DNA of 64,000 bases from an uncultured Planctomycetia bacterium (GTDB taxonomy: Bacteria; Omnitrophota; Gorgyraeia; Duberdicusellales; 4484-171). Both the position numbers and the translations under genes were made by a program. How positions within the stretch are numbered: the stretch's first letter is position 1; every line of letters begins with the position of its first letter. Of this stretch, positions 3,877 through 64,000 are shown in pieces. Under the pieces are notes generated by a model. That model saw only the letters and a program-made list of their open reading frames with translations. It did no database searches and was not told the origin of the DNA. The DNA lies in assembly GCA_964629655.1 (NCBI GenBank), contig CAZVQU010000003.1, positions 17,613 through 81,612 of the forward strand, in the 5' to 3' direction.

Positions 3877-3947
3877 ACTTGACAGAAGAATAAATATATT
3901 GTATACTTTGGGTAGTTAATAGTTAATATAGTTAAGTGTTAAGGAGG
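3877..3947 (+). promoter_or_regulatory. Putative sigma70 promoter (TTGACA-17-TATACT) plus triple GTTAA(T/G) repeat (tagTTAATagTTAATatagTTAAG) likely MarR operator, then RBS AAGGAGG
   Basis: TTGACA at 3877-3882, TATACT 17 nt downstream. Repeated GTTAAT half-sites 3913-3936 immediately upstream of marR-like start. Confidence 0.35.
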
Positions 3948-3953
3948 CTAAAT

Positions 3954-18798: not shown

Positions 18799-18963
18799 TG
18801 ATTTATACTAGCATACAATAATATTAGAGGCAAATGAAAAATCTATTCAAACTTCTTGCAAACTTACAGGAGAATTATAGAATGCATCTAAGGAGGAAGG
18901 AGGCCTGTGGTTTTTGGTAAAGTAGTTAAATCTAAGGCTAAGAAAAAGAGGAAAAATAAACCC

Positions 18964-18991
18964 TTGACAAATGATACCAAACTGGTATCAT
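18964..18991 (+). promoter_or_regulatory. Promoter TTGACA-16-TATCAT with embedded palindromic operator GATACCA-aac-TGGTATC (copy 1)
   Basis: cccTTGACAaatGATACCAaacTGGTATCATc. Near-identical copy at 25028-25055. Probable TSS about 18998, so the GT2 gene (ATG 19001) would be leaderless. Confidence 0.45.
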
Positions 18992-25018: not shown

Positions 25019-25027
25019 AATTAACCC

Positions 25028-25055
25028 TTGACAAATGATACCAATATGGTATCCT
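25028..25055 (+). promoter_or_regulatory. Promoter TTGACA-16-TATCCT with embedded palindromic operator GATACCA-ata-TGGTATC (copy 2)
   Basis: cccTTGACAaatGATACCAataTGGTATCCTt. 36/40 nt identical to 18961-19000. Confidence 0.45.
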
Positions 25056-42849: not shown

Positions 42850-42900
42850 ATAGCGTAGGAACACATAGAAAAAGTCTACATTTGCACATTTTTACTGATT

Positions 42901-42947
42901 CCCGGTCCTTTCTTTACAAATCCTCTGAATCCTTTCATTATACTGTA
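42901..42947. repeat. Intergenic repeat family 1, copy a (about 47 bp; second copy at 50224-50272, about 80% identical)
   Basis: cccggtcctttctttacaaatcctctgaatcctttcattatactgta vs cccttggttccttctttacaaattctccaaacccttcctttttactgta. Both lie 50-70 bp downstream of a + strand stop. Confidence 0.5.
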
Positions 42948-43074
42948 GCCGTTATAGTATGAAATCTTAACTTCCCTGGAGGGAAACCCTTCTTTTCTAG
43001 CCTGCGGCTATCTTTAACATAGTTGATTCAAACGCAAAATAATTGTCTATTCGTAACATTTTGGTGTATAATTA

Positions 43075-45072
43075 ATGAGACAACAAAAAATTGTTCCCAA
43101 CACGTATAAAAACATGAAAAGGAAAATGAAAACTAAAAAGAAGAGGGTAGCCGGCACTATTGATAATAAGGATTTAGCCTATAAGTATAAGCTTTTTTCT
43201 GATCTCATGGCGTATATTCCCGATGTCATTTACTTTAAGGACAATAAGGGAAGGCTGCTTATGGTGAATAAAGCCTATGCTAGAGGTTTAAAGATACCGG
43301 TTAAAAACATCATTGGTAAAACAGATTTTGATTTTTTTCCTAAGAAGCGAGCCGAGATGATGACAAAAGATGATCAGTACGTCTTAAAGGGAGGTAAGCC
43401 GATTATCGACAAGATTGAACGCGCGACCCGGCCTGACGGAATCGATAATTATGTCTCAACGACAAAGATACCTCGCTATGATGATCAGGGGAAAATTATC
43501 GGCCTTATTGGCATTACCCGTGATATCACCCGAAGGATGCAACTTGAGCAAATACGGAAAGAAAAGGTGCATATTGAAAAGAAGGTGGAGATACTAGAGG
43601 GGATGAATAGATTCAAGTCGGAGTTTATCTCGTCAGTTTCCCATGAGTTGAGAACTCCTTTAGCAATCATAAAGCAGCTAGTTACTCTTGTTTCTAATGA
43701 GACAGTCGGAGAAATCAACAATAAGCAAAAAGAAATACTTACGAAAACAAAGAACAACATCGAACGTCTAAAAAAGATTATCGATGAGGTACTTGATATA
43801 TCGCGAATTGAAAGAGGAACATTAAAGTTTCATTATGCGCTAGTTAACCTTAACGACTTGGTCGAAGATTCTGCTGATTTCTTTAAGGAATTGACTAAAG
43901 ATCGGGGCATAACTTTAGATTATGATCTTCCGCAGAGGCAGGTAAATCTTTTTATCGATGGGGACAGGATAAACCAGGTTCTTTTTAACCTAATTGACAA
44001 TGCGATAAAATTCACGGAGGAGGGAGAAATTAAGGTAGAGGTTAAAGTTTTTGAAACTAAAGTCAGAATCGGTGTAGTTGATACTGGGGTTGGTATTGCT
44101 AAGCCGGGCATGACGGAGTTATTTAATAAATTTGCTCAGGTTTCCGAGATTGCTAGCGCCGAAAAAAAAGGAATAGGTCTCGGACTTTCTTTAGCAAAGG
44201 AATTGGTTGAAAGGCACGGCGGTGAAATTTGGGTAGAATCTAAATTAGGGGTGGGTAGTAAATTTTATTTTACATTACCTCGTTTCTACAAACGCGATAT
44301 TTTAGATACCCATATTAAGGAAAAAATAAATAATTCATTAGATAGGGGTAAGCCGATATACTTTATCAGCGTATTAATTGTTAATTATCGGGAATTTAAA
44401 CGAATGATTAAAGTGAAGCCGAAAAAACTCTTCACAGATTTAGAGGATATTATTGATCAGACTTTTAGCGAGGTTTGTAAATTTAAAAAAGAAAAGCCAC
44501 AAATTGTTACAATCGATATCCGAAACGGAGAATGTGGTATTATTTTTCCTAATACGACAGAGAAAAAGGCAATTATGGTTTCTGAGGTGGTTAGGGATCG
44601 GATAAAAACCTATTTTGCTAAACATAAAGTTAGAGGTGTTTTTACCACGGTAGGGGTTATGCCTTACTCTGAGCAGAGTAAGGCTTTGATAGCCAGAAAG
44701 CTTCCCGCGAATATCCATATGAAGGAGATATACATTGGCTCTAAACAGAGGCGTTTTGAGAGAGTTCTCTATGAGCCAGGCGTAGACATTATGCTTTCCG
44801 AGGATTTAGCGGAATCATCAGAGACTGTAGATATTTCAAAAGGAGGAGTTTGCATTATAACCAAAGCATCCCTTAAAGCAGATTCAGAGGTTAATATTAA
44901 ATTTGAACTCCCGAAAAATAAGAAAGTGATTCAGACCAAAGCCCGCGTAGCCTGGATAAGGAATTTAGATAGGGTGTTTGGGGAAAGCATTGCTAGGCGT
45001 AAGGTAGGTTTAGAATTTATTAAATTGAAAACCAAAGATCGGAGGTTTCTCTTAAAGGAATTAAAGTCATAA
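43075..45072 (+). CDS. PAS sensor histidine kinase fused to degenerate GGDEF domain and C-terminal PilZ domain
   Basis: HisKA ISSVSHELRTPL. HATPase GIGLGLSLAKELVERHGGEIWVES. GGDEF-like block VTIDIRNGECGIIFPNT (RNGEC in place of GG[DE]EF). PilZ motifs QRRFER and DISKGGVCI. Confidence 0.75.
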   Translation: MRQQKIVPNTYKNMKRKMKTKKKRVAGTIDNKDLAYKYKLFSDLMAYIPDVIYFKDNKGRLLMVNKAYARGLKIPVKNIIGKTDFDFFPKKRAEMMTKDDQYVLKGGKPIIDKIERATRPDGIDNYVSTTKIPRYDDQGKIIGLIGITRDITRRMQLEQIRKEKVHIEKKVEILEGMNRFKSEFISSVSHELRTPLAIIKQLVTLVSNETVGEINNKQKEILTKTKNNIERLKKIIDEVLDISRIERGTLKFHYALVNLNDLVEDSADFFKELTKDRGITLDYDLPQRQVNLFIDGDRINQVLFNLIDNAIKFTEEGEIKVEVKVFETKVRIGVVDTGVGIAKPGMTELFNKFAQVSEIASAEKKGIGLGLSLAKELVERHGGEIWVESKLGVGSKFYFTLPRFYKRDILDTHIKEKINNSLDRGKPIYFISVLIVNYREFKRMIKVKPKKLFTDLEDIIDQTFSEVCKFKKEKPQIVTIDIRNGECGIIFPNTTEKKAIMVSEVVRDRIKTYFAKHKVRGVFTTVGVMPYSEQSKALIARKLPANIHMKEIYIGSKQRRFERVLYEPGVDIMLSEDLAESSETVDISKGGVCIITKASLKADSEVNIKFELPKNKKVIQTKARVAWIRNLDRVFGESIARRKVGLEFIKLKTKDRRFLLKELKS

Positions 45073-45135
45073 CCGGGATAAGCTAGATTTAGGGAATAAT
45101 TGGATTGACCATAATAAAATAAAGGGAGTTATAGC

Positions 45136-45519
45136 ATGGATAAAAAGAAAATACTGCTTGTTGAGGATGAAAGAGATATGGCATATGCGGTAACCCTTCA
45201 GCTTGAAGCAGCAGGGTATAGTGTTGTCAATGCATATGATGGTTATGTCGGATTTGAAAAAGCGAAATCGGAAAGACCCGACTTAATAATTCTTGACCTT
45301 ATGCTTCCAAAGATCGAAGGCTATAAGGTCTGTCGGATGCTAAAATTTGACGAGGAATATCGAAAGATTCCGGTAATTATATTTACTGCCCGAGCCCAGG
45401 AGGCGGATAAAGAAATGAGCAAGACAGTTGGCGCTGATGCTTATATTACTAAACCATTTGACTCCGAAGTTCTGCTTTCAAAGGTTGAAGAGTTGTTAAA
45501 AGAAGTTCCTAGCCTGTAA
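45136..45519 (+). CDS. Stand-alone response-regulator receiver (CheY-like)
   Basis: KILLVEDE...DLIILDLMLPKIEGY...ITKPF. Phospho-acceptor Asp in LDLMLP. Confidence 0.8.
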   Translation: MDKKKILLVEDERDMAYAVTLQLEAAGYSVVNAYDGYVGFEKAKSERPDLIILDLMLPKIEGYKVCRMLKFDEEYRKIPVIIFTARAQEADKEMSKTVGADAYITKPFDSEVLLSKVEELLKEVPSL

Positions 45520-45582
45520 TTCTTTGATCTAGTGGTTTAGGATTCGCCTAAACCAGGTTCGCAAACCCCATCCTGAAGGAAT

Positions 45583-46608
45583 ATGAAGAATCTCAAGTTT
45601 ATTTTGTTAGCTTTGATCAGCGGTCTCATCTTTGCGTTTATTATTTGCGAAAGTTTCTTACATATTTTTAATTTGCCCAAGAGTAATAATTTATACTACT
45701 CCTTTGTGAATCCAGAACTTCAACGCAAGGAGTTTATTTTTGATACATATTTATTTTGGAAAGCAAAACTTCATGGAATAGTTTATGGGAGGAAAGTAAA
45801 CAATAAAGGATTTAGAGGGGGCAATTTTTCAGAACAAAAAGATAAAAATGTAATTAGAATTATATTTCTAGGAGGTTCATGTACTTTTCAGGCAGAGGTT
45901 GAAAATAAGAATACTGTAGTTTGCCTGCTGCAGGAAATGCTGAAAGAAGATTTTCCTGGAAAAAATATTCAAGTTTACAACATGGGAATGCCTGGTTACA
46001 GTTCATTGCAAGGTTTAAGATTGCTAAAGGCACAAGCTTTAAAATATTCGCCGGATATATTACTGGTAAATTTTGGGCATAATGATGCTGCTTTTGCATT
46101 TTATTTTGCTGACAAACAGCAGATAGCTACAAAGATTAAGTATCTTTTCGAAAAAACATTCAGCAAAATAAGATGTTATCGTTTAGTAAGAGATGCCTGT
46201 AATAAGGCTTTAGTGAGTTCTGAATTAAGAAGTTCCAGATTTCAACCGAGAGTTAATCTCCAAGATTACCATGATAACATGGCTGAAATCTGCAAAATTG
46301 CGAAAGATAATAATATAAAAATTATTCTATACGATTTACCTATTTTGAAAAATATGGAGAGTGAGGAGTATTATAAATTTAGGCAAAGTTACTTTGATAA
46401 TTTAAGGAATGTAGCAAAGGATAATGCAGTGACTTTTGCGAATGTCAGATCCGTTTTTGTAGATGATATTGAGGCCTATTTTAACAATCCCGAAAGAGAT
46501 CCGATTCATCTTAATGAAGAAGGTTATAAAATGGTAGCTAGGATACTATATCCAACCGTTATTAAATCTGTTGATGAGATTGTTAGAAGCTGGCCGTCAG
46601 GACTCTAG
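45583..46608 (+). CDS. SGNH/GDSL-family hydrolase with N-terminal TM anchor
   Basis: IIFLGGSCT (block I Ser), GHNDAA (block III), DPIHLNEEG (block V DxxH). Confidence 0.65.
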   Translation: MKNLKFILLALISGLIFAFIICESFLHIFNLPKSNNLYYSFVNPELQRKEFIFDTYLFWKAKLHGIVYGRKVNNKGFRGGNFSEQKDKNVIRIIFLGGSCTFQAEVENKNTVVCLLQEMLKEDFPGKNIQVYNMGMPGYSSLQGLRLLKAQALKYSPDILLVNFGHNDAAFAFYFADKQQIATKIKYLFEKTFSKIRCYRLVRDACNKALVSSELRSSRFQPRVNLQDYHDNMAEICKIAKDNNIKIILYDLPILKNMESEEYYKFRQSYFDNLRNVAKDNAVTFANVRSVFVDDIEAYFNNPERDPIHLNEEGYKMVARILYPTVIKSVDEIVRSWPSGL

Positions 46609-46740
46609 CATTAGTGATAGACACTACTTCTTTTACTTTTCGGACTCGCCAGAATATACTTTGAGGTTTACAAGGAGAGGGGAATTATAGGGATTTTTTG
46701 GTATTGCATTGACAAATTTTGATATTCTAACTACACTAAC

Positions 46741-48762
46741 GTGACTCAAATAAACCTGTTTCCATACATAGGAGGAGATACATTGGATATTTACCTAGCA
46801 GATCTTAGAGCCAGCGAGGCAAGTAGTTCGGAGATGCCTTTAAACATAGGTAACATTGCTGCATTTTTAAAAAAACATTTACCCCAATTAAACCTTCAAC
46901 TATTTACAAATCCTTTAGAACTCAAGAAAGCCATTGATAATAAACCTCCAAAGATTTTTATGACAAGCAATTACTGTTGGAATAAAAATCTTTCTTTGTG
47001 CATGGCAAAATATGTAAAGAAGCGACAAACTCAATCCACTTGTATAATGGGAGGGCCAAATATCTCGCTTAACGCTTCGCAGAGAAAAAACTTCCTTAAG
47101 AAAAATCCGTCGGTCGATTTCTATGTTCTTTTTGATGCTGAATTAGCTATATTGAAATTAGTAAAAAGTTTGTTAGCTAACGATTTTGATATTGGAAAAA
47201 TTAAATCTTTGCCTGGAGAAATAGAAAGCGTCGCTTTTATTAATAGAGATAAGTATATCGAGTGCCCAGCAAAATCAAGACTTAAGTCTTTGGATGACAT
47301 CCCTTCTCCATATGCCATTGGTATAATGGACAAATTTTTTGCGACTTTTCAAACCCCAAAGATTCAATCTGTCCGAGGATGTCCATATTCTTGCGTTTAC
47401 TGTAATATGGGAATACCATATTATAGTAAGCTGATAAAAATGTCACTAAAGAGATTTAGCGATGACTTGGATATAATTGTTGATAAAATGAAAACATACA
47501 GATACGAAGTAAAAGGTATAAACATTATTGATGACAATTTTGGATTAGCTCCAGAAGACATCCATAAAGCAAGGATGTTGAAAAGTAAACATGATAAAAC
47601 TGGTTATCCCGATAGGATTGATGTCTACACAGCCAAGAATCTTACTAAGGGAGTTATAGAAGCAGCCAAAATTATAAAAGATCTTACATGTATTAACCAT
47701 ACTCCTCAGTCTTTGAATCCGGAGACCCTTAATGCTATCAAAAGACCCAATAAAGATATCAAAAAGTTTATAGAGTCAGGAAAATGGTTGACCAAGCAAG
47801 GTTTTCATGTCCATACGGAGTTAATTTCGGGGCTCCCTCTCGAGACAAAAAAATCTTTTATTGCCGGACTAAATTTACTAGATAATATAGGACTATCCGA
47901 ATATACAATTTATCAACTTACTATCATTGACGGCTCACCTATGGATAACTTGGATTACCTTAATAATTATGGGATTCGACTTAAATATAGAGCTTATCCT
48001 AACTCGAGGATAAAGATAGGAAACAAGATAATTGAAGAGTACGAAAAGGTAGTCTACAGAACTTCTAGCATGCTACCTAAGGATTATTTTTCTATTCGCC
48101 TGATTACTTTTTTGCTGCGACTACAAGTCGCAATGGGAGTTCCTGATTTTTTTGAATACCTTAAGAGTAGACATGGTATAAGCAGCTTTGACGTAGCAAA
48201 TCTGGTTGCTAACAAAGTCCTGGATGCTAATTTTAAAAAGGAGGGCAATAAGGCATTGGCGTTCCTAAGAGATTTTGATAATGAAGCTCACAGTGAGCTT
48301 CTAGACTCAGCAAGAGTACATAATGAAGTAGTCAAACAGAGAAAAAATTTAGTTCACAAATATCGAACTTTAATATTATTAAAGGAATATTCTTCTTTGT
48401 GTGATCTTTATCTATGTGTTCTACTCGATTCAAAATATATTAGGAGTAAAATGGAAAGAGAGATTCTTTCTGTTTTTCTTGAATTTATTAAACTTACCGA
48501 CATCAGATCTCTATTTATGGATGAAAAACTTCCAAGCATACAAGAGGTTTTACAATACAAGGTTTTTACACATAATATTAAAGATTTATCCAAGCTAAAA
48601 GACCCTGTTCACCGGTTGACTACTTTGCGTAAAGTAGGATATATTTATCCCGTCGAATATAAGGAGTCTATTCTAAATTTTTTGTCGAGAAATGATGAGG
48701 ATAGTTGTATTAATATTTGTAACAAATATGGATGGGCGTGTTTCAAGCTTAAAATGGCTTAA
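46741..48762 (+). CDS. B12-binding-domain radical SAM protein (class B)
   Basis: VRGCPYSCVYCNMG (CxxxCxxC) preceded by about 200-aa B12-binding-like region (IMGGPNISL). In-frame TTG 46783 after GGAGGAG is an alternative start. Promoter-like TTGACA-17-TACACT at 46711. Confidence 0.7.
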   Translation: MTQINLFPYIGGDTLDIYLADLRASEASSSEMPLNIGNIAAFLKKHLPQLNLQLFTNPLELKKAIDNKPPKIFMTSNYCWNKNLSLCMAKYVKKRQTQSTCIMGGPNISLNASQRKNFLKKNPSVDFYVLFDAELAILKLVKSLLANDFDIGKIKSLPGEIESVAFINRDKYIECPAKSRLKSLDDIPSPYAIGIMDKFFATFQTPKIQSVRGCPYSCVYCNMGIPYYSKLIKMSLKRFSDDLDIIVDKMKTYRYEVKGINIIDDNFGLAPEDIHKARMLKSKHDKTGYPDRIDVYTAKNLTKGVIEAAKIIKDLTCINHTPQSLNPETLNAIKRPNKDIKKFIESGKWLTKQGFHVHTELISGLPLETKKSFIAGLNLLDNIGLSEYTIYQLTIIDGSPMDNLDYLNNYGIRLKYRAYPNSRIKIGNKIIEEYEKVVYRTSSMLPKDYFSIRLITFLLRLQVAMGVPDFFEYLKSRHGISSFDVANLVANKVLDANFKKEGNKALAFLRDFDNEAHSELLDSARVHNEVVKQRKNLVHKYRTLILLKEYSSLCDLYLCVLLDSKYIRSKMEREILSVFLEFIKLTDIRSLFMDEKLPSIQEVLQYKVFTHNIKDLSKLKDPVHRLTTLRKVGYIYPVEYKESILNFLSRNDEDSCINICNKYGWACFKLKMA

Positions 48763-49097
48763 ATTAGAAGTTTCGACAGAAAATTTGTCAATGCGATACT
48801 AAAAGATTCCTATAATTTCCCTTCCTCGGCGATCGCAGTATCTAAAGGTAGGCTCTGCTGGCCTAACGGTCAGCTTCGCATTCATCCGGCTTCCGTGAGT
48901 TAAGTTTTAAACTATTCCACAAATCATTACATTCCTGCTATAATACCTCTCTATGAAAATCTATATTTAGACCCTTGGATGGAGATGGACGTAGTATTAT
49001 ACGATTTTTATGCCTTGCCTGAACAAGATTTGGTGATAGTCTAGATATCCTAGATTGATTGAGGGATGACGTTAGAGCTGTTAAATAAGATGTTTTA

Positions 49098-50159
49098 GTG
49101 AGATTGGAGTTAGGCTTGAAAGCAAAGAAATCTGTTACTTTAAGAGTTCTATTGGTTACTTTATTCGCAATAGGACTTTTAGTCTTGTGTGTTTTTGTAA
49201 AAGGATCTTCTCAAAGGCCTGAATTAAACGTTATTGAAAAGACCGATCTAGCCTTCAATATTGAGATAGACCAAAATGATACCTCTTTCTACAAAAATTT
49301 CATTAAGAACAATGTGCGATATCAAACGCCAATATCAAAGATAGAGCTTTTAAAGCAGATTAAAGATGCTCAGGATTATCTAGAGACTCATCCTTCAGGA
49401 AAAATTACTGGGGATTTAAGAAAAAGAATTATTACCGAGCTAAATGTAGGTTTTCTTTTGCATAAGCTTAATCAAAGAAAGCTAGTAGTAACTGTTGCTG
49501 CTACGCATCAATATGAAGGATATACTGAAAATGAGTTATTATTCAAAGATCCGCAAGTAGGAACTTTTTCTGTCCTGTTTCTAGTTCCTAACAAGGAGAA
49601 AAGATCTCATCCAGCAGTTGTTGGTTTGCATGGCCATGGTGATTCTAGCAAGAGATTTAGAGATAACTATTTTGGGAAAGAGCTAGCCAAAAAGGGATTT
49701 ATAGTTATTATGCCCTCTTTTCGAGCTATGTTTTGTGATGAAATAGAAAGAGTTATTAGTGAAGAATTGTATTTAAGCGGTTTTACTCTTATGGGGCTGA
49801 GGGTTTACGAAACACTTCTTACAATAAAATACCTAAAGCATAAAAATTTCGTTGATAAAATAGGCATCATGGGACATTCAGGCGGTAGCGACACCGCTTA
49901 TTTGGTTTCCATCATAAGCCCAGATTTACAGGCATTGGTCTATGACATGTATCCAAATCAACTTAATATGTGTTATGAAAGGATTCATTGTGAGACAATT
50001 CCAAGATTGGCTTATTATGGCTCTCAAATTAATGACTTTGCTACTTTAAAGATCCCTTCGCGGAAGTTTGAATATAGTGAATATGGATATTCTAACCCAG
50101 GTGATGCACAAAAAGTGACTACTTTCTTTAAAGAAAAACTAGAGTTAACAAAAGAGTAA
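49098..50159 (+). CDS. Alpha/beta-hydrolase-fold protein (dienelactone-hydrolase/esterase-like), N-terminal signal/anchor
   Basis: VVGLHGHGDSSKRF and nucleophile elbow GIMGHSGGSD. Likely true start TTG 49116 (MKAKKSVTLRVLLV...). Confidence 0.5.
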   Translation: MRLELGLKAKKSVTLRVLLVTLFAIGLLVLCVFVKGSSQRPELNVIEKTDLAFNIEIDQNDTSFYKNFIKNNVRYQTPISKIELLKQIKDAQDYLETHPSGKITGDLRKRIITELNVGFLLHKLNQRKLVVTVAATHQYEGYTENELLFKDPQVGTFSVLFLVPNKEKRSHPAVVGLHGHGDSSKRFRDNYFGKELAKKGFIVIMPSFRAMFCDEIERVISEELYLSGFTLMGLRVYETLLTIKYLKHKNFVDKIGIMGHSGGSDTAYLVSIISPDLQALVYDMYPNQLNMCYERIHCETIPRLAYYGSQINDFATLKIPSRKFEYSEYGYSNPGDAQKVTTFFKEKLELTKE

Positions 50160-50223
50160 GAGATTAAAACCAAAAGGATTCGCGCGAAAAATGCCTAAAA
50201 TCTATATTAAGACATTCGGCTGA

Positions 50224-50272
50224 CCCTTGGTTCCTTCTTTACAAATTCTCCAAACCCTTCCTTTTTACTGTA
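50224..50272. repeat. Intergenic repeat family 1, copy b
   Basis: See 42901-42947. Confidence 0.5.
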
Positions 50273-50289
50273 TTCCAGACAGAACTAGA

Positions 50290-50520
50290 TAGGCTAGCAC
50301 AGTCTTGAATGATGCCCCCGCCCGCCTTCACCTCCTGAACGTCGGCTACGGTGGGCTTGGTGATTGGTGTAGGCTTCGTTCGTCCTCGCTGGGGCTCGTC
50401 CTCACTTGGCGCTCGCTAGGCCGCTCGCTTCGCGGCGATGCCAATAGCATACGATTCGGCTTTTCTTCCCCCTTATCGGCTCACGTACGCCGATAAGGAT
50501 TATCTGCATCCTCTCCCTCG
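50290..50520. other. GC-rich (about 60%) non-coding island inside a 700-bp gene-free region. Contains perfect hairpin CCTTATCGGC-N8-GCCGATAAGG (50471-50498) and CG-rich low-complexity (cgctcg) tracts
   Basis: Composition contrasts with the about 38% GC surroundings. No convincing ORF (track ORF 50305-50496 is Arg/Ser/Leu-rich low complexity). Confidence 0.4.
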
Positions 50521-50615
50521 CAAAAAAAAAAACAACTCCTAAACCATAATTCTTTTATTTTATATCGGCGGCGGCGAAAAATTCCTAAAAGGTGTTTTTG
50601 CTCGGGGAGAGTCCG

Positions 50616-50667
50616 CATTCTGCCTACGCGATTGTCCCGTATTCATTTCGGGACATCGCTTGGCAGA
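50616..50667. other. Long imperfect hairpin (TTCTGCC..CGCGAT..GTCCCG-loop-CGGGAC..ATCGC..GGCAGAA), candidate structured RNA element or terminator
   Basis: Nested complementary segments read directly from the sequence. Confidence 0.3.
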
Positions 50668-50714
50668 ATAAAGCCGAATCTTTTTGCAAATATAAGTGGT
50701 TGCAATATCCCACC

Positions 50715-50759
50715 CACCCAAAGCCTGTCTCGGCCTACACCCCGAACCAGCCTTTTCCC
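50715..50759. repeat. Intergenic repeat family 2, copy a (cacccaaagcctgtctcggcctacaccccgaaccagccttttccc). Split copy at 55288-55307 + 55379-55409
   Basis: Part 1 cacccaaaRcctRtctcgg and part 2 tcggcctRcRcYccgaRccagccttttccc are conserved. The 55.3 kb copy carries about 70 bp inserted between the parts. Confidence 0.45.
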
Positions 50760-50858
50760 TAATTAAAAATAATTGCAAAATAATGCCTGAGAGTATAAAA
50801 TATTAATAAAGCGGTTGTAGTGTGTTTTAGTTAAAGGAATGTAAGGGAGGATAACGAA

Positions 50859-51242
50859 ATGCCTAACGCAAACAGTAAAAAGACAATATTGGTGGTAGAA
50901 GATAAACCTTTGAACATGAAACTTGCCGTAGATCTTCTTGAGCTAAATGGGTTTAACCTTCTAAAGGCTTTTGATGGAAAATCTGCCATTGAGATATTAA
51001 AAGAAAATATTCCAGATCTTGTTCTTATGGATATTGGTCTGCCTGACATGGATGGATTTGAATTGCTTAAGCTGGTGAGGCAAGACAAGCGATTCGATGA
51101 GATACCAATAGGCGCGTTTACCGCTTCAGTGATGCAGGAAGATGAGCAAAGAATTAAAGACGCTGGTTTTAATTTTTTCATTAGAAAACCAATTGATACA
51201 AAGAACTTTGTTAAAACAGTAAAAAACCTAGCAAGGGAATAA
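50859..51242 (+). CDS. Stand-alone response-regulator receiver (CheY-like)
   Basis: ILVVEDKPLN...DLVLMDIGLPDMDGFE...IRKPI. Confidence 0.8.
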   Translation: MPNANSKKTILVVEDKPLNMKLAVDLLELNGFNLLKAFDGKSAIEILKENIPDLVLMDIGLPDMDGFELLKLVRQDKRFDEIPIGAFTASVMQEDEQRIKDAGFNFFIRKPIDTKNFVKTVKNLARE

Positions 51243-51246
51243 ATAC

Positions 51247-51876
51247 ATGAATAGATCAAAATTACTGGGAATCATTATTATCTTAGTGGGTATTGTGGTA
51301 ATGACGGGGTGGATATTAGATATCGGAATCCTAAAAAGCATATTGCCTTTTTGGGTAACAATGAAATTTACAACAGCGCTTTCTTTTTTCTTAAGCGGCA
51401 CAACTCTTTATTTTATAGCTGATTTAGTGAAGAATAAAAGTGAGGTTGCCAGAGTAATTTTACCAATAACAACAATGGTTATTCTTCTGCTTATGGTCAC
51501 ACTTCTGGTTTCTACATTTTCAGGTATACGTACGGGAATTGAAGACCTGTTTGTAAGCGAATCTGAAGGAGCATTTAAAACTGTAATTCCTGGTAGACCA
51601 TCAGTAGGTACGATGGTAAATTTTACTTTTATAACCATTGCTGTGTTTTGTGTAATGCTTAACCTGAAAAAATCTTTATTTAGGCTAAAACTTATCGGTG
51701 GAACAATTTCTCTTGTGTCCGGTGTCGCAATTGTTGGCTATATCATTAATGTTCCACCTTTATATTATGCGATCGATAATTTTAGTACTGCGATGGCCTT
51801 TCATACTGCTATCCTTTTTCTTCTGTTAGGGGTTGGTTTATTCTTAGTATCAGGAGTCAAAGATAATGTTGATTAA
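51247..51876 (+). CDS. Integral membrane protein (about 6 TM), possibly a separate sensor module for the downstream kinase
   Basis: 209 aa, mostly hydrophobic. 11-nt overlap with the downstream HK start suggests translational coupling. Confidence 0.4.
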   Translation: MNRSKLLGIIIILVGIVVMTGWILDIGILKSILPFWVTMKFTTALSFFLSGTTLYFIADLVKNKSEVARVILPITTMVILLLMVTLLVSTFSGIRTGIEDLFVSESEGAFKTVIPGRPSVGTMVNFTFITIAVFCVMLNLKKSLFRLKLIGGTISLVSGVAIVGYIINVPPLYYAIDNFSTAMAFHTAILFLLLGVGLFLVSGVKDNVD

Positions 51877-53770
51877 AGTAAAACTTATTATTCTATTTGT
51901 TGTACTTGTTACGATTCCGCTGTTTTTTGTTAGCTTTATAAGCTATACAAATAGCAAAGATGCCTTAGAACAGGCAATCTTAAGCAAGCTGCATCTTGTT
52001 ACTGAATTTAGAGAGAGTGAGATACTTGTTTTTCTGGAGAATATTAAAAAACGTACAATACATTTTTCTTCCGAACCGGCAATTAAAGATTTTGTCAAAG
52101 AAGCCGCTGATGTTAACAAACATGAAATTGGAAGAAAGTTTACAAAATATTTATTCGAGCATGAAGCACTTAATGACAAAGATATAGTAGCTATAGATGT
52201 AGTAGATTTAAGTGGGCAGGTGATAATTTCAAGTAGCCCTTTAAGGATAGGCCGTGACTATAGCAAAACGAGTTCTTTTTTATACGGTAGAAACAAGGCA
52301 TATGTCAGCGACACGATAAGGAATGAAGAAGGGGTAGCAGGGTTTAGTGTATCCGTACCGATTATGTCTTATAAAAAAGATAAAGTTATCGGCGTTTGGG
52401 TGGCTCACTACGATGAAGATACTTTGAGCGGAATATTAACCGGAGAGAGAATTTTAAGATTGGGGGCGATGACTCAATGGAGAGGGGTAGGTAATACCGG
52501 AGAAAGTTATATAGTTAACCAAGATAAATTCATGATAACAGAATCATTATTTTTAGAAGATGCTATTTTGAATCAAAGAGTAGGTACCTATCCGGTAAAT
52601 AAGGGTTTGGAAGAAAACAAAGAAGTAAAAGGTGTATGGTTGGATTATCGCGGGATACCTGTAATTGGCGTTTCAATGGTTCTTCATATAGAAGATTTTA
52701 CTTGGGTTTTGCTTTCCGAACAAGATGTAAGTGAAGCGATTATCCCAGCACATGATCTCAGAAAGATATTACTTATGATAGTAGTTACCACAGCCTTAAT
52801 TATTATTTTAATAACGTTGTTAATTTCTCAATCAATTTCAGATCCGATTCGCGCTCTTCAGAAAGGTGCCAAGATAATAGGCGGAGGTAATTTAAATTAC
52901 AAGGTTGGCACTAAGGATAAGGATGAAATTGGCCAGCTTTCTAGGGATTTTGATAAAATGACAAATACGCTGCAAAAAACTACTGCCTCACGGGATTCCC
53001 TTAACAAAGAAATTTCTATACGTAAACGAGTAGAAGCGGACTTAACAAGTGCGAAAAAAGATGCTGAAGCAGCCAGCAAGGCAAAAAGTGATTTTCTTGC
53101 TAGTATGAGCCATGAATTAAGGACTCCCTTAAATGCAATTATAGGATTCTCGGAAGTATTAAGAGATGAAGCCTTTGGTCCTTTTAACGACAAACAGAAA
53201 GAATATACTGTTGATGTGTTAAATAGCGGTAAGCATCTCTTGTCGCTTATTAATGATATTCTAGATTTGTCAAAAATCGAAGCCGGTAAAACAGAGTTGT
53301 CACTAAGTGATTTTGACTTAAAAGCGGAGCTTGAAAATAGCCTATCAATGATAAAAGAAAAAGCTTTAAAACATAACATATCTATAGTTAAAAATATTAG
53401 CGATAATTTAGGAGTAGTGCGCGCTGATGAGAGAAAATTCAAGCAAATTATGTTTAATCTTCTATCTAATGCGGCAAAATTTACGCCTGATGGCGGTAAA
53501 ATCGGCATTGAAGCAAAAATGGAAGATAAAAATACAATTCTTATTACTGTGTGGGATACTGGTATTGGTATAGAAGAAAAAAATAAGGACAAGGTTTTTA
53601 AGGAGTTTGAGCAGATTGACTCAAGTCATTCACGAAAATATGCCGGTACAGGTTTGGGCATGCCATTGGCGAAGAGGTTTGTTGAGCTTCATAAAGGAAA
53701 GTTGTGGTTTGAAAGCAAGGGTAAGGATCAAGGCACTTATTTTTATTTTACGTTGCCCTTGAAAGGTTAA
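51866..53770 (+). CDS. Sensor histidine kinase (extracytoplasmic Cache-like domain, HAMP, HisKA, HATPase_c)
   Basis: TM1, about 270-aa periplasmic region, TM2. HAMP ISDPIRALQKGAKIIGGGNLNYKV...IGQLSRDFDKM. HisKA LASMSHELRTPLNAI. HATPase GTGLGMPLAKRFVELHKGKLWFES. Confidence 0.8.
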   Translation: MLIKVKLIILFVVLVTIPLFFVSFISYTNSKDALEQAILSKLHLVTEFRESEILVFLENIKKRTIHFSSEPAIKDFVKEAADVNKHEIGRKFTKYLFEHEALNDKDIVAIDVVDLSGQVIISSSPLRIGRDYSKTSSFLYGRNKAYVSDTIRNEEGVAGFSVSVPIMSYKKDKVIGVWVAHYDEDTLSGILTGERILRLGAMTQWRGVGNTGESYIVNQDKFMITESLFLEDAILNQRVGTYPVNKGLEENKEVKGVWLDYRGIPVIGVSMVLHIEDFTWVLLSEQDVSEAIIPAHDLRKILLMIVVTTALIIILITLLISQSISDPIRALQKGAKIIGGGNLNYKVGTKDKDEIGQLSRDFDKMTNTLQKTTASRDSLNKEISIRKRVEADLTSAKKDAEAASKAKSDFLASMSHELRTPLNAIIGFSEVLRDEAFGPFNDKQKEYTVDVLNSGKHLLSLINDILDLSKIEAGKTELSLSDFDLKAELENSLSMIKEKALKHNISIVKNISDNLGVVRADERKFKQIMFNLLSNAAKFTPDGGKIGIEAKMEDKNTILITVWDTGIGIEEKNKDKVFKEFEQIDSSHSRKYAGTGLGMPLAKRFVELHKGKLWFESKGKDQGTYFYFTLPLKG

Positions 53771-53774
53771 AGCG

Positions 53775-55232
53775 ATGGATAAAAAGGCAAAGATATTGGT
53801 TGTTGATGATGAGCCGCAAAATGTTAAATTGCTAGAAGCGCACCTTTTGCCAAAAGGTTATGAGATTCTGACCGCTTCAAACGGAAAAGAAGCCTTGCAA
53901 GTTGTTGTCGACAATGATATAGATTTAATTTTACTCGATATAATGATGCCGGAAATGGATGGATTTGAAGTTACTAGAAAAATAAGGGCTGAGAAAGCTA
54001 CCCAGCTTATTCCGATAGTTCTTGTTACTGCCTTGAAGGAAACTGAGGACAGGATAAAAGGTATAGACGCTGGCTGTGATGATTTTATCTCTAAGCCGTT
54101 TGATAAAAATGAAGTAATGGCGCGGGTAAATACACTTTTAAAGCTAAGTTATCTTCGTAGGCAGCTTAACGAAAAGGAAAAGTTTGAAGCAGTTATTAAC
54201 GAGATAGGTGATGGTATTATTGTATGCGATAAAGACTGGATTATAAAAGATATTAATAATTCCGCACAGAAATACTTGAACATGTCTGAGCCCGGGAGTG
54301 CGAATTTATCTGAAGTTATTTTTAAGCTTTACTCGGTATCCATAGCAAAAGAAGAAATTTCAGATTTTTCAATTCCACACATGACATTTGAGCTTATTCG
54401 TGAGGAAACGGAACAGTTCAAAGCCTTATATCTAGCCGCTAATTTGGATATTCTCAAAAATCCGGCAGGGGAAATTTCAAGCATAGTTCTGACTTTGCGT
54501 GATGTGACCGAAATGCGCAAAGAAGAGCTTATGAAGCAAGATTTTCTAAGTCTTATCTCACATAAATTGGCTACACCGATAGGAGCTATTAGCGGGAGTG
54601 CAGCTTTGTTTAAAAATGGAACCTTAGGGCCTTTGAACGAGGAGCAGGGCAAGTTTATGAATAGCATTTTGGAAAAGGCGCATTCGCTTGAAAGCTTACT
54701 TGATAAATTATTGGGATTTGTTACGATAGAGCGGAAAAAGATAGATTCGTTAAAAGAGCCAATAGAGCTCCAGAGCTATTTACCGGCCTTGCTCAATCCG
54801 ATAGTTGAGAAAAAAAATGGTAAAAAAATAAAACTGGACATTAATTGCCAAGGTGATGACATGAAAGTTTATATAAACAAAGGGCATCTTGATTTAATAA
54901 TTAAGAATCTTATTGAAAACGCTATTAAATTTAATGACAAGGATTTTAAAGAAATCATTGTTTCTGCTGAAAACTTAGCTGAGAAGATAAAGATCTCTGT
55001 TTCTGACAATGGTCCTGGTATACCTTCTGAGGAAAAAGATAAGATATTTCAAAAATTTTATCAGATTGAAAAATATTTTACCGGTAATGTCGAAGGCGTT
55101 GGTTTAGGCCTTGCCTTGGTAAAATGCCTCGTAACCGCCTATGGCGGCCAGATAGGTATAGAATCAGAAATTGGGAAAGGTTCAAAATTCACTTTTACCA
55201 TACCGAATCTTTCTGCAAATATAAGTGATTAA
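53775..55232 (+). CDS. Hybrid response-regulator receiver / PAS-like / histidine kinase
   Basis: REC ILVVDDEPQN...DLILLDIMMPEMDGFEV. HisKA LSLISHKLATPIGAI. HATPase GVGLGLALVKCLVTAYGGQIGIES. Confidence 0.8.
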   Translation: MDKKAKILVVDDEPQNVKLLEAHLLPKGYEILTASNGKEALQVVVDNDIDLILLDIMMPEMDGFEVTRKIRAEKATQLIPIVLVTALKETEDRIKGIDAGCDDFISKPFDKNEVMARVNTLLKLSYLRRQLNEKEKFEAVINEIGDGIIVCDKDWIIKDINNSAQKYLNMSEPGSANLSEVIFKLYSVSIAKEEISDFSIPHMTFELIREETEQFKALYLAANLDILKNPAGEISSIVLTLRDVTEMRKEELMKQDFLSLISHKLATPIGAISGSAALFKNGTLGPLNEEQGKFMNSILEKAHSLESLLDKLLGFVTIERKKIDSLKEPIELQSYLPALLNPIVEKKNGKKIKLDINCQGDDMKVYINKGHLDLIIKNLIENAIKFNDKDFKEIIVSAENLAEKIKISVSDNGPGIPSEEKDKIFQKFYQIEKYFTGNVEGVGLGLALVKCLVTAYGGQIGIESEIGKGSKFTFTIPNLSANISD

Positions 55233-55287
55233 GAATACCCCATCCCTGGCTCCACATCTTTTGTTTTGCGAAGAAAAACAGTGGGGC

Positions 55288-55409
55288 CACCCAAAACCTA
55301 TCTCGGTGTGACCGAAGGATACAGCCGTAGGGAATGCCGAGAGTATTCCAAATTCATATTATTTAAGTAGCGACGGCCTCGGCCTGCGCTCCGAGCCAGC
55401 CTTTTCCCC
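55288..55409. repeat. Intergenic repeat family 2, copy b (interrupted by about 70-bp insert 55308-55378)
   Basis: See 50715-50759. Confidence 0.45.
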
Positions 55410-55729
55410 AAAAAGAATACTCAAAAGACAACCCTTCCAAAGAAAGAGCTGAATACCTTTTTTCACATAAAAACAAATAACATATCATTTAGAACCTGTA
55501 AAGGATCTACGGGTCAAAAAATTTGCCTCATTTTTTAATCTTTCTATACAGCACGGATAAATTGCTTCGCACCCTTCGGGGAGCCTCAATTTTTAGCTTC
55601 CGTTCCTCCTTGACAGAACCTAAATGATAATGTGAAGAGGTCATTAAGCGAAAAAAGGTTTTTAGATATTTTTTAATAAAGGCTCTCTCACAAAGTTAAT
55701 AAGGCGAATAAACAAAAGGAGGTGTTGTT

Positions 55730-56312: not shown

Positions 56313-57455
56313 GTGAAGAGACGTAGATTTCACCTATTCTCTGTATTAATCCTCGCAATATTTTTAATTACTCAGGCTGCATATTCTGCAGATGATTTTG
56401 TTTCCTCCCGGGTTAAAGACATATCCGACCGTAGCTACGAAGAAGCTGTGATTGGGCTTTTAGATAATGCCCAAAAATCCATAGATATTTCTATGTATTC
56501 CATAAGTTTAGGGACAAATACTAACAACCCGGTAAAACTTTTGCTTAACGATTTATTGGAAGCAAGAGAAAGGGGCGTTGAAGTTACTCTATATCTTAAT
56601 ACCCGCTTCAGAGATTCTAAGAAAGGTGGTAATTCTTTTGCTGAAAGCCTTATTTTTAAAAAATTGGAGAAGGCCGGAGTCCTTATTCATTTTATACCCT
56701 CTAATCGCAGACTTCACGATAAGCTTATAGTAGTTGATAGCCGGTATGTAGTTGAGGGCAGTGCTAATTGGTCTATCTCAGCCCTGAAGAATAATTTTGA
56801 ATCTTCTACGCTTATTGATTCTCCGGATCTAGCCGGGGTGAAATTGTCGCGTCTTAAAAGCTTTCTTATATTTTCGTTGCCGCGCGGCAAGAAACCTAAT
56901 GCTCCGGCTTATATAGAGAACTTACCTAAGAGTTTAAACTTACCCGGAGAGTTTGTTTTGAATAAAAAATATCTTTCTCGTATGGTTACTAGCTATGATA
57001 AGCGGGCGATGAGTCTTTATTTATTACTCCTAGCTCACAGCCAGTCTGTAGGCAAACAGGAGTTCCTAATAAGTTTAGAGGCCATGGCTTTAAGTTTAGG
57101 CATGCCTGATTCCTGGACTGACCCTGCCTTAAGGCGCCAGGTAATTAAAGTTTTAAGGAAGTTGCAAAAACGCTATCAACTTATTGAAGTAAGTTTTTTC
57201 CACAGCCGGGATGCTAATGTCATACTTACAGATATCTCCGGTGATACTTTTGGTATATCCTCAGATTCACTTATTCAGCCGGATAATGCCAAATTAACTA
57301 TGCGCCTGAAGTTTCTTCTTCTAATTCAGGCCTTGCTTAAAGAAGAGGGAGAGGACTTATATTCCATATCAAAAACCGCCCTTGCTAAACGCTTTAATGT
57401 TAATCTATCAACCATTAAAGCTGCATTTAATGATTTACGTAAGTATGGTGATTAA
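56313..57455 (+). CDS. Phospholipase-D-family (single HKD) nuclease-like protein with N-terminal signal peptide and C-terminal wHTH-like domain
   Basis: HKD motif LHDKLIVVDSRYVVEGSANWS. Signal-like MKRRRFHLFSVLILAIFLITQAAYSADD. C-terminal ISKTALAKRFNVNLSTIKAAFNDLRKYG resembles a wHTH. Confidence 0.7.
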   Translation: MKRRRFHLFSVLILAIFLITQAAYSADDFVSSRVKDISDRSYEEAVIGLLDNAQKSIDISMYSISLGTNTNNPVKLLLNDLLEARERGVEVTLYLNTRFRDSKKGGNSFAESLIFKKLEKAGVLIHFIPSNRRLHDKLIVVDSRYVVEGSANWSISALKNNFESSTLIDSPDLAGVKLSRLKSFLIFSLPRGKKPNAPAYIENLPKSLNLPGEFVLNKKYLSRMVTSYDKRAMSLYLLLLAHSQSVGKQEFLISLEAMALSLGMPDSWTDPALRRQVIKVLRKLQKRYQLIEVSFFHSRDANVILTDISGDTFGISSDSLIQPDNAKLTMRLKFLLLIQALLKEEGEDLYSISKTALAKRFNVNLSTIKAAFNDLRKYGD

Positions 57456-57478
57456 GTAGAGTTTTTAAAGAATAGATT

Positions 57479-58036
57479 ATGGAAATAATATGTTCCGGCT
57501 GCAGGAAAGTTTTAGGCATCCAACGACCTTATGATGATAATTCCGAGGTTCCAGCCAAATGCCTTGATTGTTTCCAAAAAGAAAAGAAAGAGGCTTCAAG
57601 GCAGCCGTCATTACCGGCACCTGGAGAGCGGAAAGATATTACACTTGAGGGTGGCCTCAAAGGTTTTCTTATGGTTGCAGGCGCTGGTACAGCAAAACTT
57701 TCCTTTTGGGATTTGATAGTTTCCGGGAAGGAGATATTTTGCGCCAAGGATCGAAGAGAAAGCTTTCAGGAATATCTGGAAATGAGAGATAGCGACCATG
57801 TTGATGTAACTTTTTTATTCTCTTCGTCCATCAAGATTCCACCTACAAACTGTAGGAGCAAAAAACAATCCATTAAGAAAAATAAGTCCCAATCGATTCA
57901 CTATAACTGCACTGTGACGGTCTCTAAAGATTATGCGCTTATGATGTTTGATAAAGTGGCAGAGCGACAGGAACAGTTTGCAAATGTAGTTACTGAGGGA
58001 ATAGTTAAAGCGAGTGAAGCCGAATTTTCATGGTAG
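57479..58036 (+). CDS. Hypothetical protein with N-terminal Zn-ribbon (CSGC...CLDC)
   Basis: 185-aa ORF. No other motif recognised. Confidence 0.35.
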   Translation: MEIICSGCRKVLGIQRPYDDNSEVPAKCLDCFQKEKKEASRQPSLPAPGERKDITLEGGLKGFLMVAGAGTAKLSFWDLIVSGKEIFCAKDRRESFQEYLEMRDSDHVDVTFLFSSSIKIPPTNCRSKKQSIKKNKSQSIHYNCTVTVSKDYALMMFDKVAERQEQFANVVTEGIVKASEAEFSW

Positions 58037-58164
58037 AGTGGTTAGAAAATATTCCACCCGCCTAGCAGTCACAGTCGGACGGCTTAAGTCTTTAGGACTT
58101 CTGCTGCACCCTTTATATGCCGTTGCCCCATAGAAGAATTAGCTTGCATGAATATATTAAATAT

Positions 58165-58181
58165 GGTACATTGTGGCACAA
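58165..58181 (+). promoter_or_regulatory. Perfect 17-bp palindrome ACATTGTG-g-CACAATGT overlapping putative promoter (TTGCAT-17-TACATT) of the HTH gene. Candidate controller operator
   Basis: Read directly. Located about 30 nt upstream of ATG 58212. Confidence 0.4.
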
Positions 58182-58211
58182 TGTTGTATAACGCAAAATG
58201 GAGTATTTCCA

Positions 58212-58385
58212 ATGTTACTTAAAGGATATTTAACAGTAGTGCAGGTTGCTAAACAGCTTGGCCTGTCTGAGTACAGAATACGCGAGCTTATTCGAGAGAA
58301 GCAAATTCGTGCGGTGAAGATAGGGCAATGGCGAGTAAAGCCTGAGGATTTAAAAGAGTTTATTAAAGCAAGGACGAATAGATAA
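58212..58385 (+). CDS. Excisionase/MerR-type HTH DNA-binding protein (possible R-M controller)
   Basis: LTVVQVAKQLGLSEYRIRELIREKQIRAVKIGQWRVKPEDLKEF = HTH_17/Xis-family pattern. Start chosen at ATG 58212 (57 aa). Track GTG start 58173 lies inside the palindrome. Confidence 0.6.
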   Translation: MLLKGYLTVVQVAKQLGLSEYRIRELIREKQIRAVKIGQWRVKPEDLKEFIKARTNR

Positions 58386-58388
58386 ATT

Positions 58389-60911: not shown

Positions 60912-60925
60912 AGGAAAATTGAGAT

Positions 60926-63370: not shown

Positions 63371-64000
63371 TCAAAACGCAAACAGCAACCTATGTCGGTC
63401 ATCGTCAGAGGATAAAGGATAAGTACAAGAAGGCAGGCGTAAGTGGCTGGTTAGATTATGAGGTGGTGGAGTTAGTTCTTTCCTATGCTATCGCTCGGAA
63501 AGACACAAAACCGATTGCCAAAGAATTGATGAACCGGTTTAAAACAATCAGTGGGGTTTTAGATGCTGACAGTAAAGAACTAAAGTCTGTCTCCGGGGTT
63601 TCAGAACACACAGCCTTGTTTTTAAAGTTGCTGAAAGATATCGCTGTTCTTTATTTAGAAAATGGTTTGCATGGTAAAGATTTGCTGTCATCATCCGAAC
63701 AGGTTTTTGATTACCTGAAGGTTTCTCTGAAGGGGTGTGTGGATGAGGAATTTAAGACCATCTTTTTAAATGGCAGAAATCAACTGGTAGCAGTTGAGGC
63801 ACTTCAGATAGGCACAGTTAATAGATCTGCAATTTATCCGAGGAAGATTGTCGAGCGGGCATTGTATCATCATGCGGTTGGTGTTATTATCGCACATAAT
63901 CATCCAGCGGGCACGTTGACACCCTCAAAGGAAGATTGCGCGGTAACAAAATCTATTAAGGATGCGCTCAAGACTGTTGAAATTAGCCTGTTAGATCATA
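63367..64000 (+). CDS. radC: RadC-like JAB-domain protein (partial, C-terminus beyond window)
   Basis: N-terminal helix-hairpin-helix region and JAMM motif HNHPAG...PSKED. ATGA overlap with upstream stop. Confidence 0.8.
   Translation, partial: MIKTQTATYVGHRQRIKDKYKKAGVSGWLDYEVVELVLSYAIARKDTKPIAKELMNRFKTISGVLDADSKELKSVSGVSEHTALFLKLLKDIAVLYLENGLHGKDLLSSSEQVFDYLKVSLKGCVDEEFKTIFLNGRNQLVAVEALQIGTVNRSAIYPRKIVERALYHHAVGVIIAHNHPAGTLTPSKEDCAVTKSIKDALKTVEISLLDH

Follow-up and report, generated by a model that had tools for sequence, protein, structure and literature searches.

A gap in an Omnitrophota contig is probably the end region of a family of large-serine-recombinase islands directed at the start of miaB

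Results

One unit fills the gap behind the hydrolase gene

We analyzed a stretch of 64,000 nucleotides (the window, whose coordinates are used throughout) from contig CAZVQU010000003.1 of an uncultured Omnitrophota bacterium. The subject is a gap of about 700 bp on the plus strand, between an alpha/beta hydrolase gene (stop codon at 50157-50159) and a cassette of two-component genes starting at 50859. A first-pass annotation, made from the letters alone, had described this gap and its surroundings as gene-free DNA with two intergenic repeat families and a GC-rich, hairpin-rich island. It had offered small RNA genes, elements of 3' untranslated regions (3' UTRs), repetitive extragenic palindromes (REPs), remnants of miniature inverted-repeat transposable elements (MITEs) or a horizontally acquired fragment as candidates. 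The last of these proved right: the gap reads as the terminal region of an integrative genomic island.

Both repeats are real, and longer than had been noted. The two copies of Family 1, A (42895-42947) and B (50220-50272), share 75% identity over 53 nt, and the match extends to 42871-42947 and 50197-50272, with 71% over 77 nt (E of about 1e-7 within the window). The two copies of Family 2 are 85% identical between 50729-50762 and 55378-55411, and extend at the 5' side to a 28-mer, CCGAATCTTTYTGCAAATATAAGTGRTT, present at 50674-50701 and 55203-55230; compared to copy 1, copy 2 contains extra blocks of 41 and 72 nt. The GC-rich island stands as well (60.5% GC at 50300-50499, against 38.7% for the whole window), and so do the perfect hairpin of 10 bp with an 8-nt loop at 50471-50498 and the nested hairpin at 50616-50667.

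To regard the repeats as two intergenic families is misleading, since both of them and the GC-rich island are modules of one unit of about 600 nt that recurs elsewhere as a block. We searched public genomes and metagenomes for the hairpin arms, leaving the loop unconstrained, and so traced homologous copies of the whole gap in several metagenome contigs and in other Omnitrophota metagenome-assembled genomes, among them Candidatus Gygaella obscura. Alignments of these contigs have in common the whole stretch from about 50167-50190 to about 50765 of the window, with identities between copies of 80-83% in the GC-rich half and 92-95% in the 3' half. This shows that a single unit, called E here, takes in Family 1 copy B, the GC-rich block, the two hairpins and Family 2 copy 1; it spans about 50167-50765 (~600 nt) as far as the aligned copies delimit it. 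A profile built from the copies and run on the window with nhmmer recovered the full copy at 50135-50812 and two fragments, at 55203-55416 (E=4e-6) and 42869-42947 (E=1e-5). The annotation had held that repeats unique to their sites would speak against a family; what we found lies in between, as the repeats, judged by the 64-kb window, are not dispersed within the genome and do form a family across genomes, within a mobile element.

Within E, the GC-rich block (50290-50452, no strand assigned) is about 60% GC, about 80% conserved between copies around an invariant core, CTTGGCGCTCGCTAGGCCGCTCGCTTCG, and noncoding, as judged by its 1-nt indels. The 3' module (50674-50765, plus strand), which is Family 2 copy 1, consists of the 28-mer, or A-box, followed by a segment Z that runs from CACCCACCCAAAG to CCGARCCAGCCTTTTCCC. 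A promoter, TTGCAA-17-TAAAAT, follows at 50773-50801, and in every copy that we read the promoters of the cargo start directly past the Z module. No terminal inverted repeats were found at the ends of E.

The genes that flank E are unrelated from copy to copy. They are the hydrolase on the left and the two-component genes on the right in the window, a 4Fe-4S protein on the left and TetR, GNAT and deacetylase genes on the right at locus L021, and a phospholipase D (PLD) nuclease on the right at L018; several contigs of related copies end inside E. The regions downstream of relatives of the hydrolase are likewise unrelated and without synteny. At one of these (L011, 1146-1992) the hydrolase relative is followed by 846 bp without a called gene, and the E profile had no match there.

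Other identities for the gap were examined and rejected. The annotation had seen no credible open reading frame (ORF) in it, and this holds: none of the gap ORFs is present in a collection of 15 billion proteins, and indels between copies break the frames. A small protein gene in the GC-rich block was rejected on the same grounds, the indels there not being multiples of three. A known RNA was dismissed because ARAGORN found no tRNA or tmRNA in the gap and the Rfam covariance-model scan that the annotation had proposed matched no family: Rfam 15 at the gathering score gave no match for the window or for 7 other copies of E, and with the E-value limit raised to 10 the best match scored 19.6 bits against a cut-off of 76. 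Neither the plasmid nor the phage collection had a blastn match to the gap and three pattern scans of viral contigs found nothing, which disposes of a contaminant or a fragment of a known plasmid or phage. A decayed histidine-kinase pseudogene was likewise rejected, tblastn with the neighboring proteins giving only noise.

In intact copies a large serine recombinase gene runs into E

The peptides from every open frame of E were joined end to end, and we queried the protein collection with this chimera. Only three proteins matched, all of them large serine recombinases (LSRs) of 577-579 residues, and Family 1 encodes about the last 36 residues of these three. At five loci (L019, L024, L025, L026 and L028) the LSR gene continues straight into E. 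The recombinases carry a resolvase catalytic domain, a recombinase domain and a zinc ribbon (PF00239, PF07508 and PF13408), in P0070-P0074 as in about 520 homologs, and the family has at least 524 homologs at E<=1e-60, many of them 80-88% identical.

The C-termini of the family share the motif KKSTSxxSA and then diverge. Among the 120 best homologs, 40 stop two residues further on, in VR, VK, AR, AK or GR, and 10 continue into a longer tail, DPWF(L/V)LYK(F/L)(S/A)K(P/S)F(L/F)FT(V/A)FQxEL (the DPW tail); a few have other tails. Intact recombinases of what we call subfamily 2 terminate in NQKDSRELCLKSILRHSA followed by AK and a stop. P0090, an intact member encoded outside the window, has the short tail HSA followed by AR and a stop; its best NCBIfam match is CcrB, below the cut-off.

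An LSR gene adjoining the end of the element is thus found in the related copies, and the window itself keeps the 18 terminal codons. The left half of Family 1 reads as the 3' end of the LSR gene, these last 18 codons, and the right half as the element-side half (P') of the recombination site attP together with 28 further codons. The description of the gap as gene-free needs correcting, since at its start lie a 3' remnant of a recombinase gene and a tail exon of 28 codons.

The predicted recombination site lies within the recombinase gene and the probable target is miaB

The other partner of the junction was identified on a 289-kb contig (L027). There a radical-SAM gene overlaps an LSR gene with a short tail, and miaA, hflX and hrcA-grpE-dnaK-dnaJ come next. 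Read from the ATG at L027:1982, the radical-SAM gene passes the MiaB equivalog TIGR01574 with 401 bits (cut-off 355), aligned from residue 4; by this predictive criterion the target gene is kept functional behind the LSR gene. The first codons of this MiaB, MPKKIYIRTFGCQMN, lie within the LSR gene, whose 3' end encodes them in a different frame.

Tabulating the junctions, we found a common core, AC(A/C/T)TTCGG(C/A)TG, at the end of which the sequences part, into miaB at L027 and into P' and E at nine loci. Past the core the sequence is TCAAATGAATGAG where miaB continues and ACCCTTGGTTCC where E follows, and the identity between the LSR-miaB and LSR-E junctions ends at TTCGGCTG. These limits of identity suggest that attP is contained in the 3'-terminal part of the LSR ORF: the predicted attP is CCGCACATTCGGCTG joined to ACCCTTGGTTCC, with ACATTCGGCTG and ACCCTTGG flanking the crossover, and the predicted LSR-miaB junction is ACATTCGGCTG joined to CAAGATGA.

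From these junctions we infer that insertion of the element occurs in the 5' end of miaB, that the element carries a substitute for that end, and that the stop codon of the integrated LSR gene would be supplied by the invariant GC(Q/K)MN codons of MiaB, which would explain the VR, VK, AR and AK tails. Accordingly, 38 of the 40 two-residue tails are as predicted from these codons; the two GR tails do not fit. In most homologs the LSR 3' end is shown to be fused to a bona fide miaB (the attR junction).

The tail encoded by E is under selection

Past the crossover, the window contains the P' half-site (about 50223-50247) and the 28-codon tail exon, DPWFLLYKFSKPFLFTVFQTELDRLAQS followed by a stop, which together occupy 50222-50308 on the plus strand and correspond to Family 1 copy B. 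Over the 25 codons past the crossover, the ratio of nonsynonymous to synonymous changes (pN/pS) is 0.21-0.29 in the LSR frame, where synonymous sites are close to saturation, and 0.6-5 in the two remaining frames, which contain stop codons. The low ratio in the LSR frame argues that the right half of Family 1 is a selected coding extension. The exon lengthens the LSR ORF only where the LSR gene is joined to E, and is under purifying selection.

The window keeps relics of junctions

The segment at 50168-50221 (plus strand) contains the last 18 codons, NQKDSREKCLKSILRHSA, of a truncated LSR gene of subfamily 2, the P arm of attP; by tblastn the peptide matches P0146 (residues 524-541) at 17 of 18 positions (94%) and P0150 at 16 of 18 (89%). 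It begins only eight bases past the hydrolase stop codon, so the recombinase gene itself is gone and copy B is best read as the relic of an LSR-E junction and not as a pristine attL. LSR remnants also precede other copies of E, with about 12 codons at L021 and 52 codons, 98% identical, at L018.

The reading of copy B as a pristine attL, in which 50191-50223 would be a native miaB 5' fragment joined to the P' arm of a single element lying to the right, deserves to be weighed. An overlapping frame there (50191-50223, plus strand; ATG CCT AAA ATC TAT ATT AAG ACA TTC GGC TGA) encodes MPKIYIKTFG and a stop, which mimics the MiaB N-terminus and is cut at the crossover within TTCGGCTG followed by A, and the genes to the left of E vary between genomes, as host neighbors of miaB would. 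However, the 54 nt to the left of the crossover are free of stops and encode the last 18 LSR residues with the 17 of 18 agreement with P0146, in a subfamily that is intact elsewhere, and the 52 codons kept at L018 are unlike a native promoter region. Moreover, a second A-Z module and copy A point to more than one element. As intact LSRs end in the very peptide of the window's left arm, we downgraded this reading, and consider it improbable.

Copy A (42869-42947, plus strand) reads as a second junction relic, decayed and without a body of E. It is 75% identical to the LSR 3' end at L026. Its left arm (about 42869-42898) reads KKSTFAHFY and a stop in the recombinase frame, closest to the KKSTSAHSA of subfamily 1, and its right arm is decayed P'-like tail sequence. 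By this degree of decay, copy A appears to be older than copy B.

The two-component cassette (50859-55232, plus strand) encodes a response regulator, an unknown protein of 209 residues, a Cache-HAMP histidine kinase and a receiver-histidine kinase, and lies between two A-Z modules. The final kinase gene (53775-55232) owes its nine terminal codons and its TAA stop to the A-box 28-mer, directly past the canonical end of the ATPase domain. Family 2 copy 2 (55203-55416, plus strand) is the A-Z 3' module of a second E that lacks its 5' two-thirds. It is 98-100% identical to the A-Z module of L021, contains variable hairpin inserts that are also present in other copies, and begins inside the closing helix of the folded domain of E described below. 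The simplest reading is that it remains from a tandem array in which the recombinase and the 5' two-thirds of the second E were deleted.

Further right (56313-64000, plus strand), the island cargo encodes a DrmC-like PLD nuclease with a C-terminal helix-turn-helix (HTH), a 185-residue protein, a 70-residue HTH_17 protein (gene at about 58174-58386) and a type I restriction enzyme with a fused methylase-specificity gene. Past the window, on L029 (12442-17202), the cargo continues with RadC, SIR2-HerA and a Cas4-like PD-(D/E)XK nuclease. By gene content the right-hand cargo (56313-63370 in the window) reads as a defence island, and the window as a section of a composite island with recombinase-less junction relics at about 42.9 and 50.2 kb.

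In four samples, the Logan contigs of the organism of the window end at 50241 and begin again at 50541, with breaks at 50241/50242 and 50540/50541 in L001, L002 and L006-L009. Logan was assembled with k=31, and an end at 50241 therefore implies a branch in the graph at 50212, which is the first base common to the P arms of subfamilies 1 and 2. The same samples thus appear to hold an LSR-E junction of the P0090 type, in an excised circle or a tandem copy. An insertion of 299 bp, bounded by these breaks or by a 17-nt direct repeat (GCGAAAAATKCCTAAAA, at 50184 and 50574), was rejected because the homologous copies show a single unit; the breaks fit a sequence that is common to other island copies. 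A run of 11 A residues at 50520-50530 is specific to the E of the window, other copies having GCAAAAACTTC, and adjoins the right-hand break.

Two further repeats were recorded in the window. An inverted repeat of 43 nt (46678-46720 and 48780-48822, 88% complementary) surrounds a gene for a radical-SAM protein of 673 residues (46741-48762), and its arms contain hexamers resembling TTGTCA...TATAAT that are directed away from that gene. A direct repeat of 36 nt (18954-18989 and 25018-25053, 92%), AAATWAACCCTTGACAAATGATACCAAnnTGGTATC, has a TTGACA hexamer and then a GATACC/GGTATC palindrome, resembling a shared promoter that has an operator.

E contains a conserved folded domain

The description of the GC-rich island as rich in hairpins needs to be divided: its GC content stands, but the block at 50308-50452 is not itself significantly folded (z +0.8/-0.28 against shuffles), with some compensatory changes in one helix, and the folded part is at 50453-50680. 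This second segment, of 228 nt and with no strand assigned, folds with z scores of -7.75 (plus strand) and -7.27 (minus strand), into a structure resembling a four-way junction. An 11-bp closing helix, GATTCGGCTTT with AAAGCCGAATC, encloses the perfect hairpin (H1, 50471-50498), a long helix between 50508-50526 and 50595-50611 (CUCUCCC..GCAAAAA with UUUUUGC..GGGGAGAG) and the nested hairpin (Y, 50616-50667).

When folded without constraints, six copies of E gave one architecture. In the inverted copy at L028 the closing helix is kept and different sequences make hairpins of 17 and 15 bp at equal positions (z -9.96), and the variable inserts of E copies sit at hairpin positions of the common fold. 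In the six-sequence alignment, 15 of the 104 predicted pairs show double changes, compared to 6.8+-1.6 in shuffles and 2-4 in slid controls. Together with the fold models, these results point to a structured noncoding element, RNA or single-stranded DNA, that is conserved in shape; the small RNA or 3' UTR element proposed by the annotation is a candidate for it. Strand was assessed from G-U pairs and UUCG loops: the fold of the minus strand is at least equal to that of the plus strand, and in one diverged copy the tetraloop lies on the other strand.

An 8-mer of the att core, ATTCGGCT (50213-50220), recurs in the 5' strand of the closing helix (50454-50461), with its complement in the 3' strand (50672-50679), and the left limit of Family 2 copy 2 falls within this motif. 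A role like that of a guide or bridge RNA was considered for this correspondence and rejected, as the motif does not covary with the variants of the att core.

The modular make-up of E and its variable inserts bear on the REP and MITE remnants put forward by the annotation, that is, on repeats that spread by themselves as dispersed REP-, MITE- or BOX-like mosaics. The CTCGG direct repeat on both sides of the 72-nt block in Family 2 copy 2 would suit such elements, and so would the assemblies that break inside E. Against them, the copies in the 64-kb window, one full and two fragmentary, all lie at island junctions, each copy adjoins an LSR 3' end or remnant, and the unit ends without terminal inverted repeats or target duplications. 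The inserts moreover occupy the hairpin positions of the common fold, and shared island sequence accounts for the assembly breaks. We find this reading scarcely credible.

Nearly as hard to sustain is the view of E as a single-copy chromosomal gene for a noncoding RNA specific to Omnitrophota, serving as an insertion hotspot for islands in the way of tRNA and tmRNA genes, with the repeats as displaced fragments. Such a gene would fit the strong fold of E, its high GC content within an AT-rich genome and its 80-95% conservation between unrelated flanks, and the direct repeat of the 3' module around the cassette resembles the islands at tRNA genes. Yet E always adjoins the 3' end of an LSR gene or what is left of one, the 28 codons at its start are under selection as LSR coding sequence, its position is not syntenic, Rfam has no match for it, and L024 and L028 each have two copies in opposite orientation within 4-5 kb. 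The constant attachment to the LSR 3' end and the paired inverted copies led us to reject a housekeeping RNA gene as the hotspot.

Discussion

A proposed mobile end region with two states

We think it likely that E, which fills the 700-bp gap, is the conserved terminal region of genomic islands of one family, moved by an LSR and targeting the start of miaB. In the model that we propose, the element would integrate in the 5' end of miaB and restore that end. The integrated LSR would have a short C-terminus, with two residues and then a stop from miaB codons, and the LSR joined to E, in an excised circle or a tandem array, would have a tail of 24-28 residues starting DPWFLLYKF. In the window, the LSR gene upstream of E would have been lost save for 18 codons, leaving Family 1 copy B as a relic of the P-P' junction, and a deletion would have fused the kinase gene to the A-box of a second E, leaving Family 2 copy 2. 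P0090 probably marks the active end of the array, beside miaB.

Several points weigh against this model. Neither an empty attB nor an excised circle was observed directly, and where P0090 and miaB lie with respect to the window is deduced, like their presence on the source contig. To our knowledge LSRs do not normally recombine attP with attR, which leaves the origin of tandem LSR-E junctions unexplained. The count of double changes comes from six sequences and from a structure predicted from the same alignment, and may thus be somewhat overstated. Both strands fold about equally, so the fold does not assign the strand or the molecule (RNA, single-stranded DNA or protein-bound duplex), and no clean intrinsic terminator was found, only one weak match to the consensus. 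Finally, at L018, L024 and L028, which are unrelated contigs, an inverted arrangement of LSR remnant and E, followed by cargo, lies just 5' of a divergent arrangement of one or more accessory genes and an LSR gene (L018, 2263-2418 on the minus and 3898-5007 on the plus strand; L024, 6518-7048 and L028, 7076-7612, both minus). The inverted copy at L028 is 90.7% identical, over 334 nt, to the 3' end of the LSR gene's own sequence plus E. Simple linear accretion does not predict such inverted copies, which may reflect inversion driven by the LSR (an inversion switch) or a rearranged array. The cargo at L028 (116-6973) includes a diversity-generating retroelement (reverse transcriptase, bAvd and an Lcl_C-type target), an IS110 transposase, an MNT-HepT pair and a RES toxin.

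As for the 228-nt domain, the reading that we favor, though at less than even odds, is that it acts as a folded transcript. It would then be the 3' UTR of the LSR mRNA in the excised state and be read from the left flank in the integrated state, where it would stop or insulate transcription ahead of the cargo promoters. A single-strand DNA origin and an architectural site bound by protein are the alternatives. More doubtful still, and offered as speculation, is the idea that the site within the gene and the 228-nt domain together form a sensor of state that controls the direction or timing of recombination, or that the domain is instead a single-strand transfer origin. In such a sensor, the tail of 24-28 residues would be made only in the excised or tandem state and the two-residue end when integrated beside miaB, and the domain would be on the recombinase transcript only in the excised state. 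We know of no description of such state-dependent control by tail or fold for LSRs.

If the model is right, the gap becomes a landmark that can be annotated: the junctions and the end region of widespread, defence-carrying Omnitrophota islands at miaB. It also provides a simple rule, in that these islands and their relics can be recognized in metagenome-assembled genomes by an LSR 3' end with MPKKIYIRTFGC encoded in a second frame, a feature that also explains the assembly breaks at them. A recombinase C-terminus that depends on integration, and a folded domain beside attP, would also bear on how the directionality of serine integrases, which are tools in genome engineering, is controlled.

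Comparison with known systems

The closest likeness is to the staphylococcal cassette chromosome SCCmec (CcrAB/CcrC, rlmH/orfX). In both cases LSR-driven insertion occurs at the end of an RNA-modification gene that is kept intact, tandem accretion leaves recombinase-less cassettes between repeated junctions, and the cargo is adaptive or defensive. They differ in that miaB is targeted here at its 5' end, whereas rlmH is targeted at its 3' end, that attP lies inside the recombinase ORF, and that the junction repeat is followed by a conserved noncoding region of about 500 nt with a folded domain; the host here is in the Omnitrophota and the island is known from its sequence alone.

A recombination site inside a coding sequence is also the basis of integration-dependent immunity in mycobacteriophages. 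Conserved, folded noncoding regions directly beside a recombinase or nuclease gene are familiar from the bridge RNA of IS110 and the omega RNA of TnpB and IscB, and E resembles them in this respect. In contrast to those systems, LSRs recognize DNA through protein domains, and here ATTCGGCT is without covariation with the att core and Rfam gives no match.

The dusA islands likewise enter a tRNA-modification gene at its 5' end and provide a substitute for that end, and the MiaB-like gene rimO is listed as a target of a mobile element (Farrugia et al. 2015, PMC4482086). Those islands use tyrosine recombinases, whereas here the recombinase is of the serine type and the replacement 5' end overlaps the 3' coding end of the recombinase gene itself. 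In the archaeal SSV-type "suicidal" integrases the recombination site is within the ORF (PMC7253208), so that, as here, integration alters the protein; the SSV integrases are split and inactivated, whereas in the serine recombinase described here 24-28 C-terminal residues would be exchanged for two. The island is thus an ordinary element of a known kind, and what sets it apart, on the sequences compared, would be the placement of attP within the recombinase ORF, with a selected alternative tail, and the conserved, strongly folded domain.

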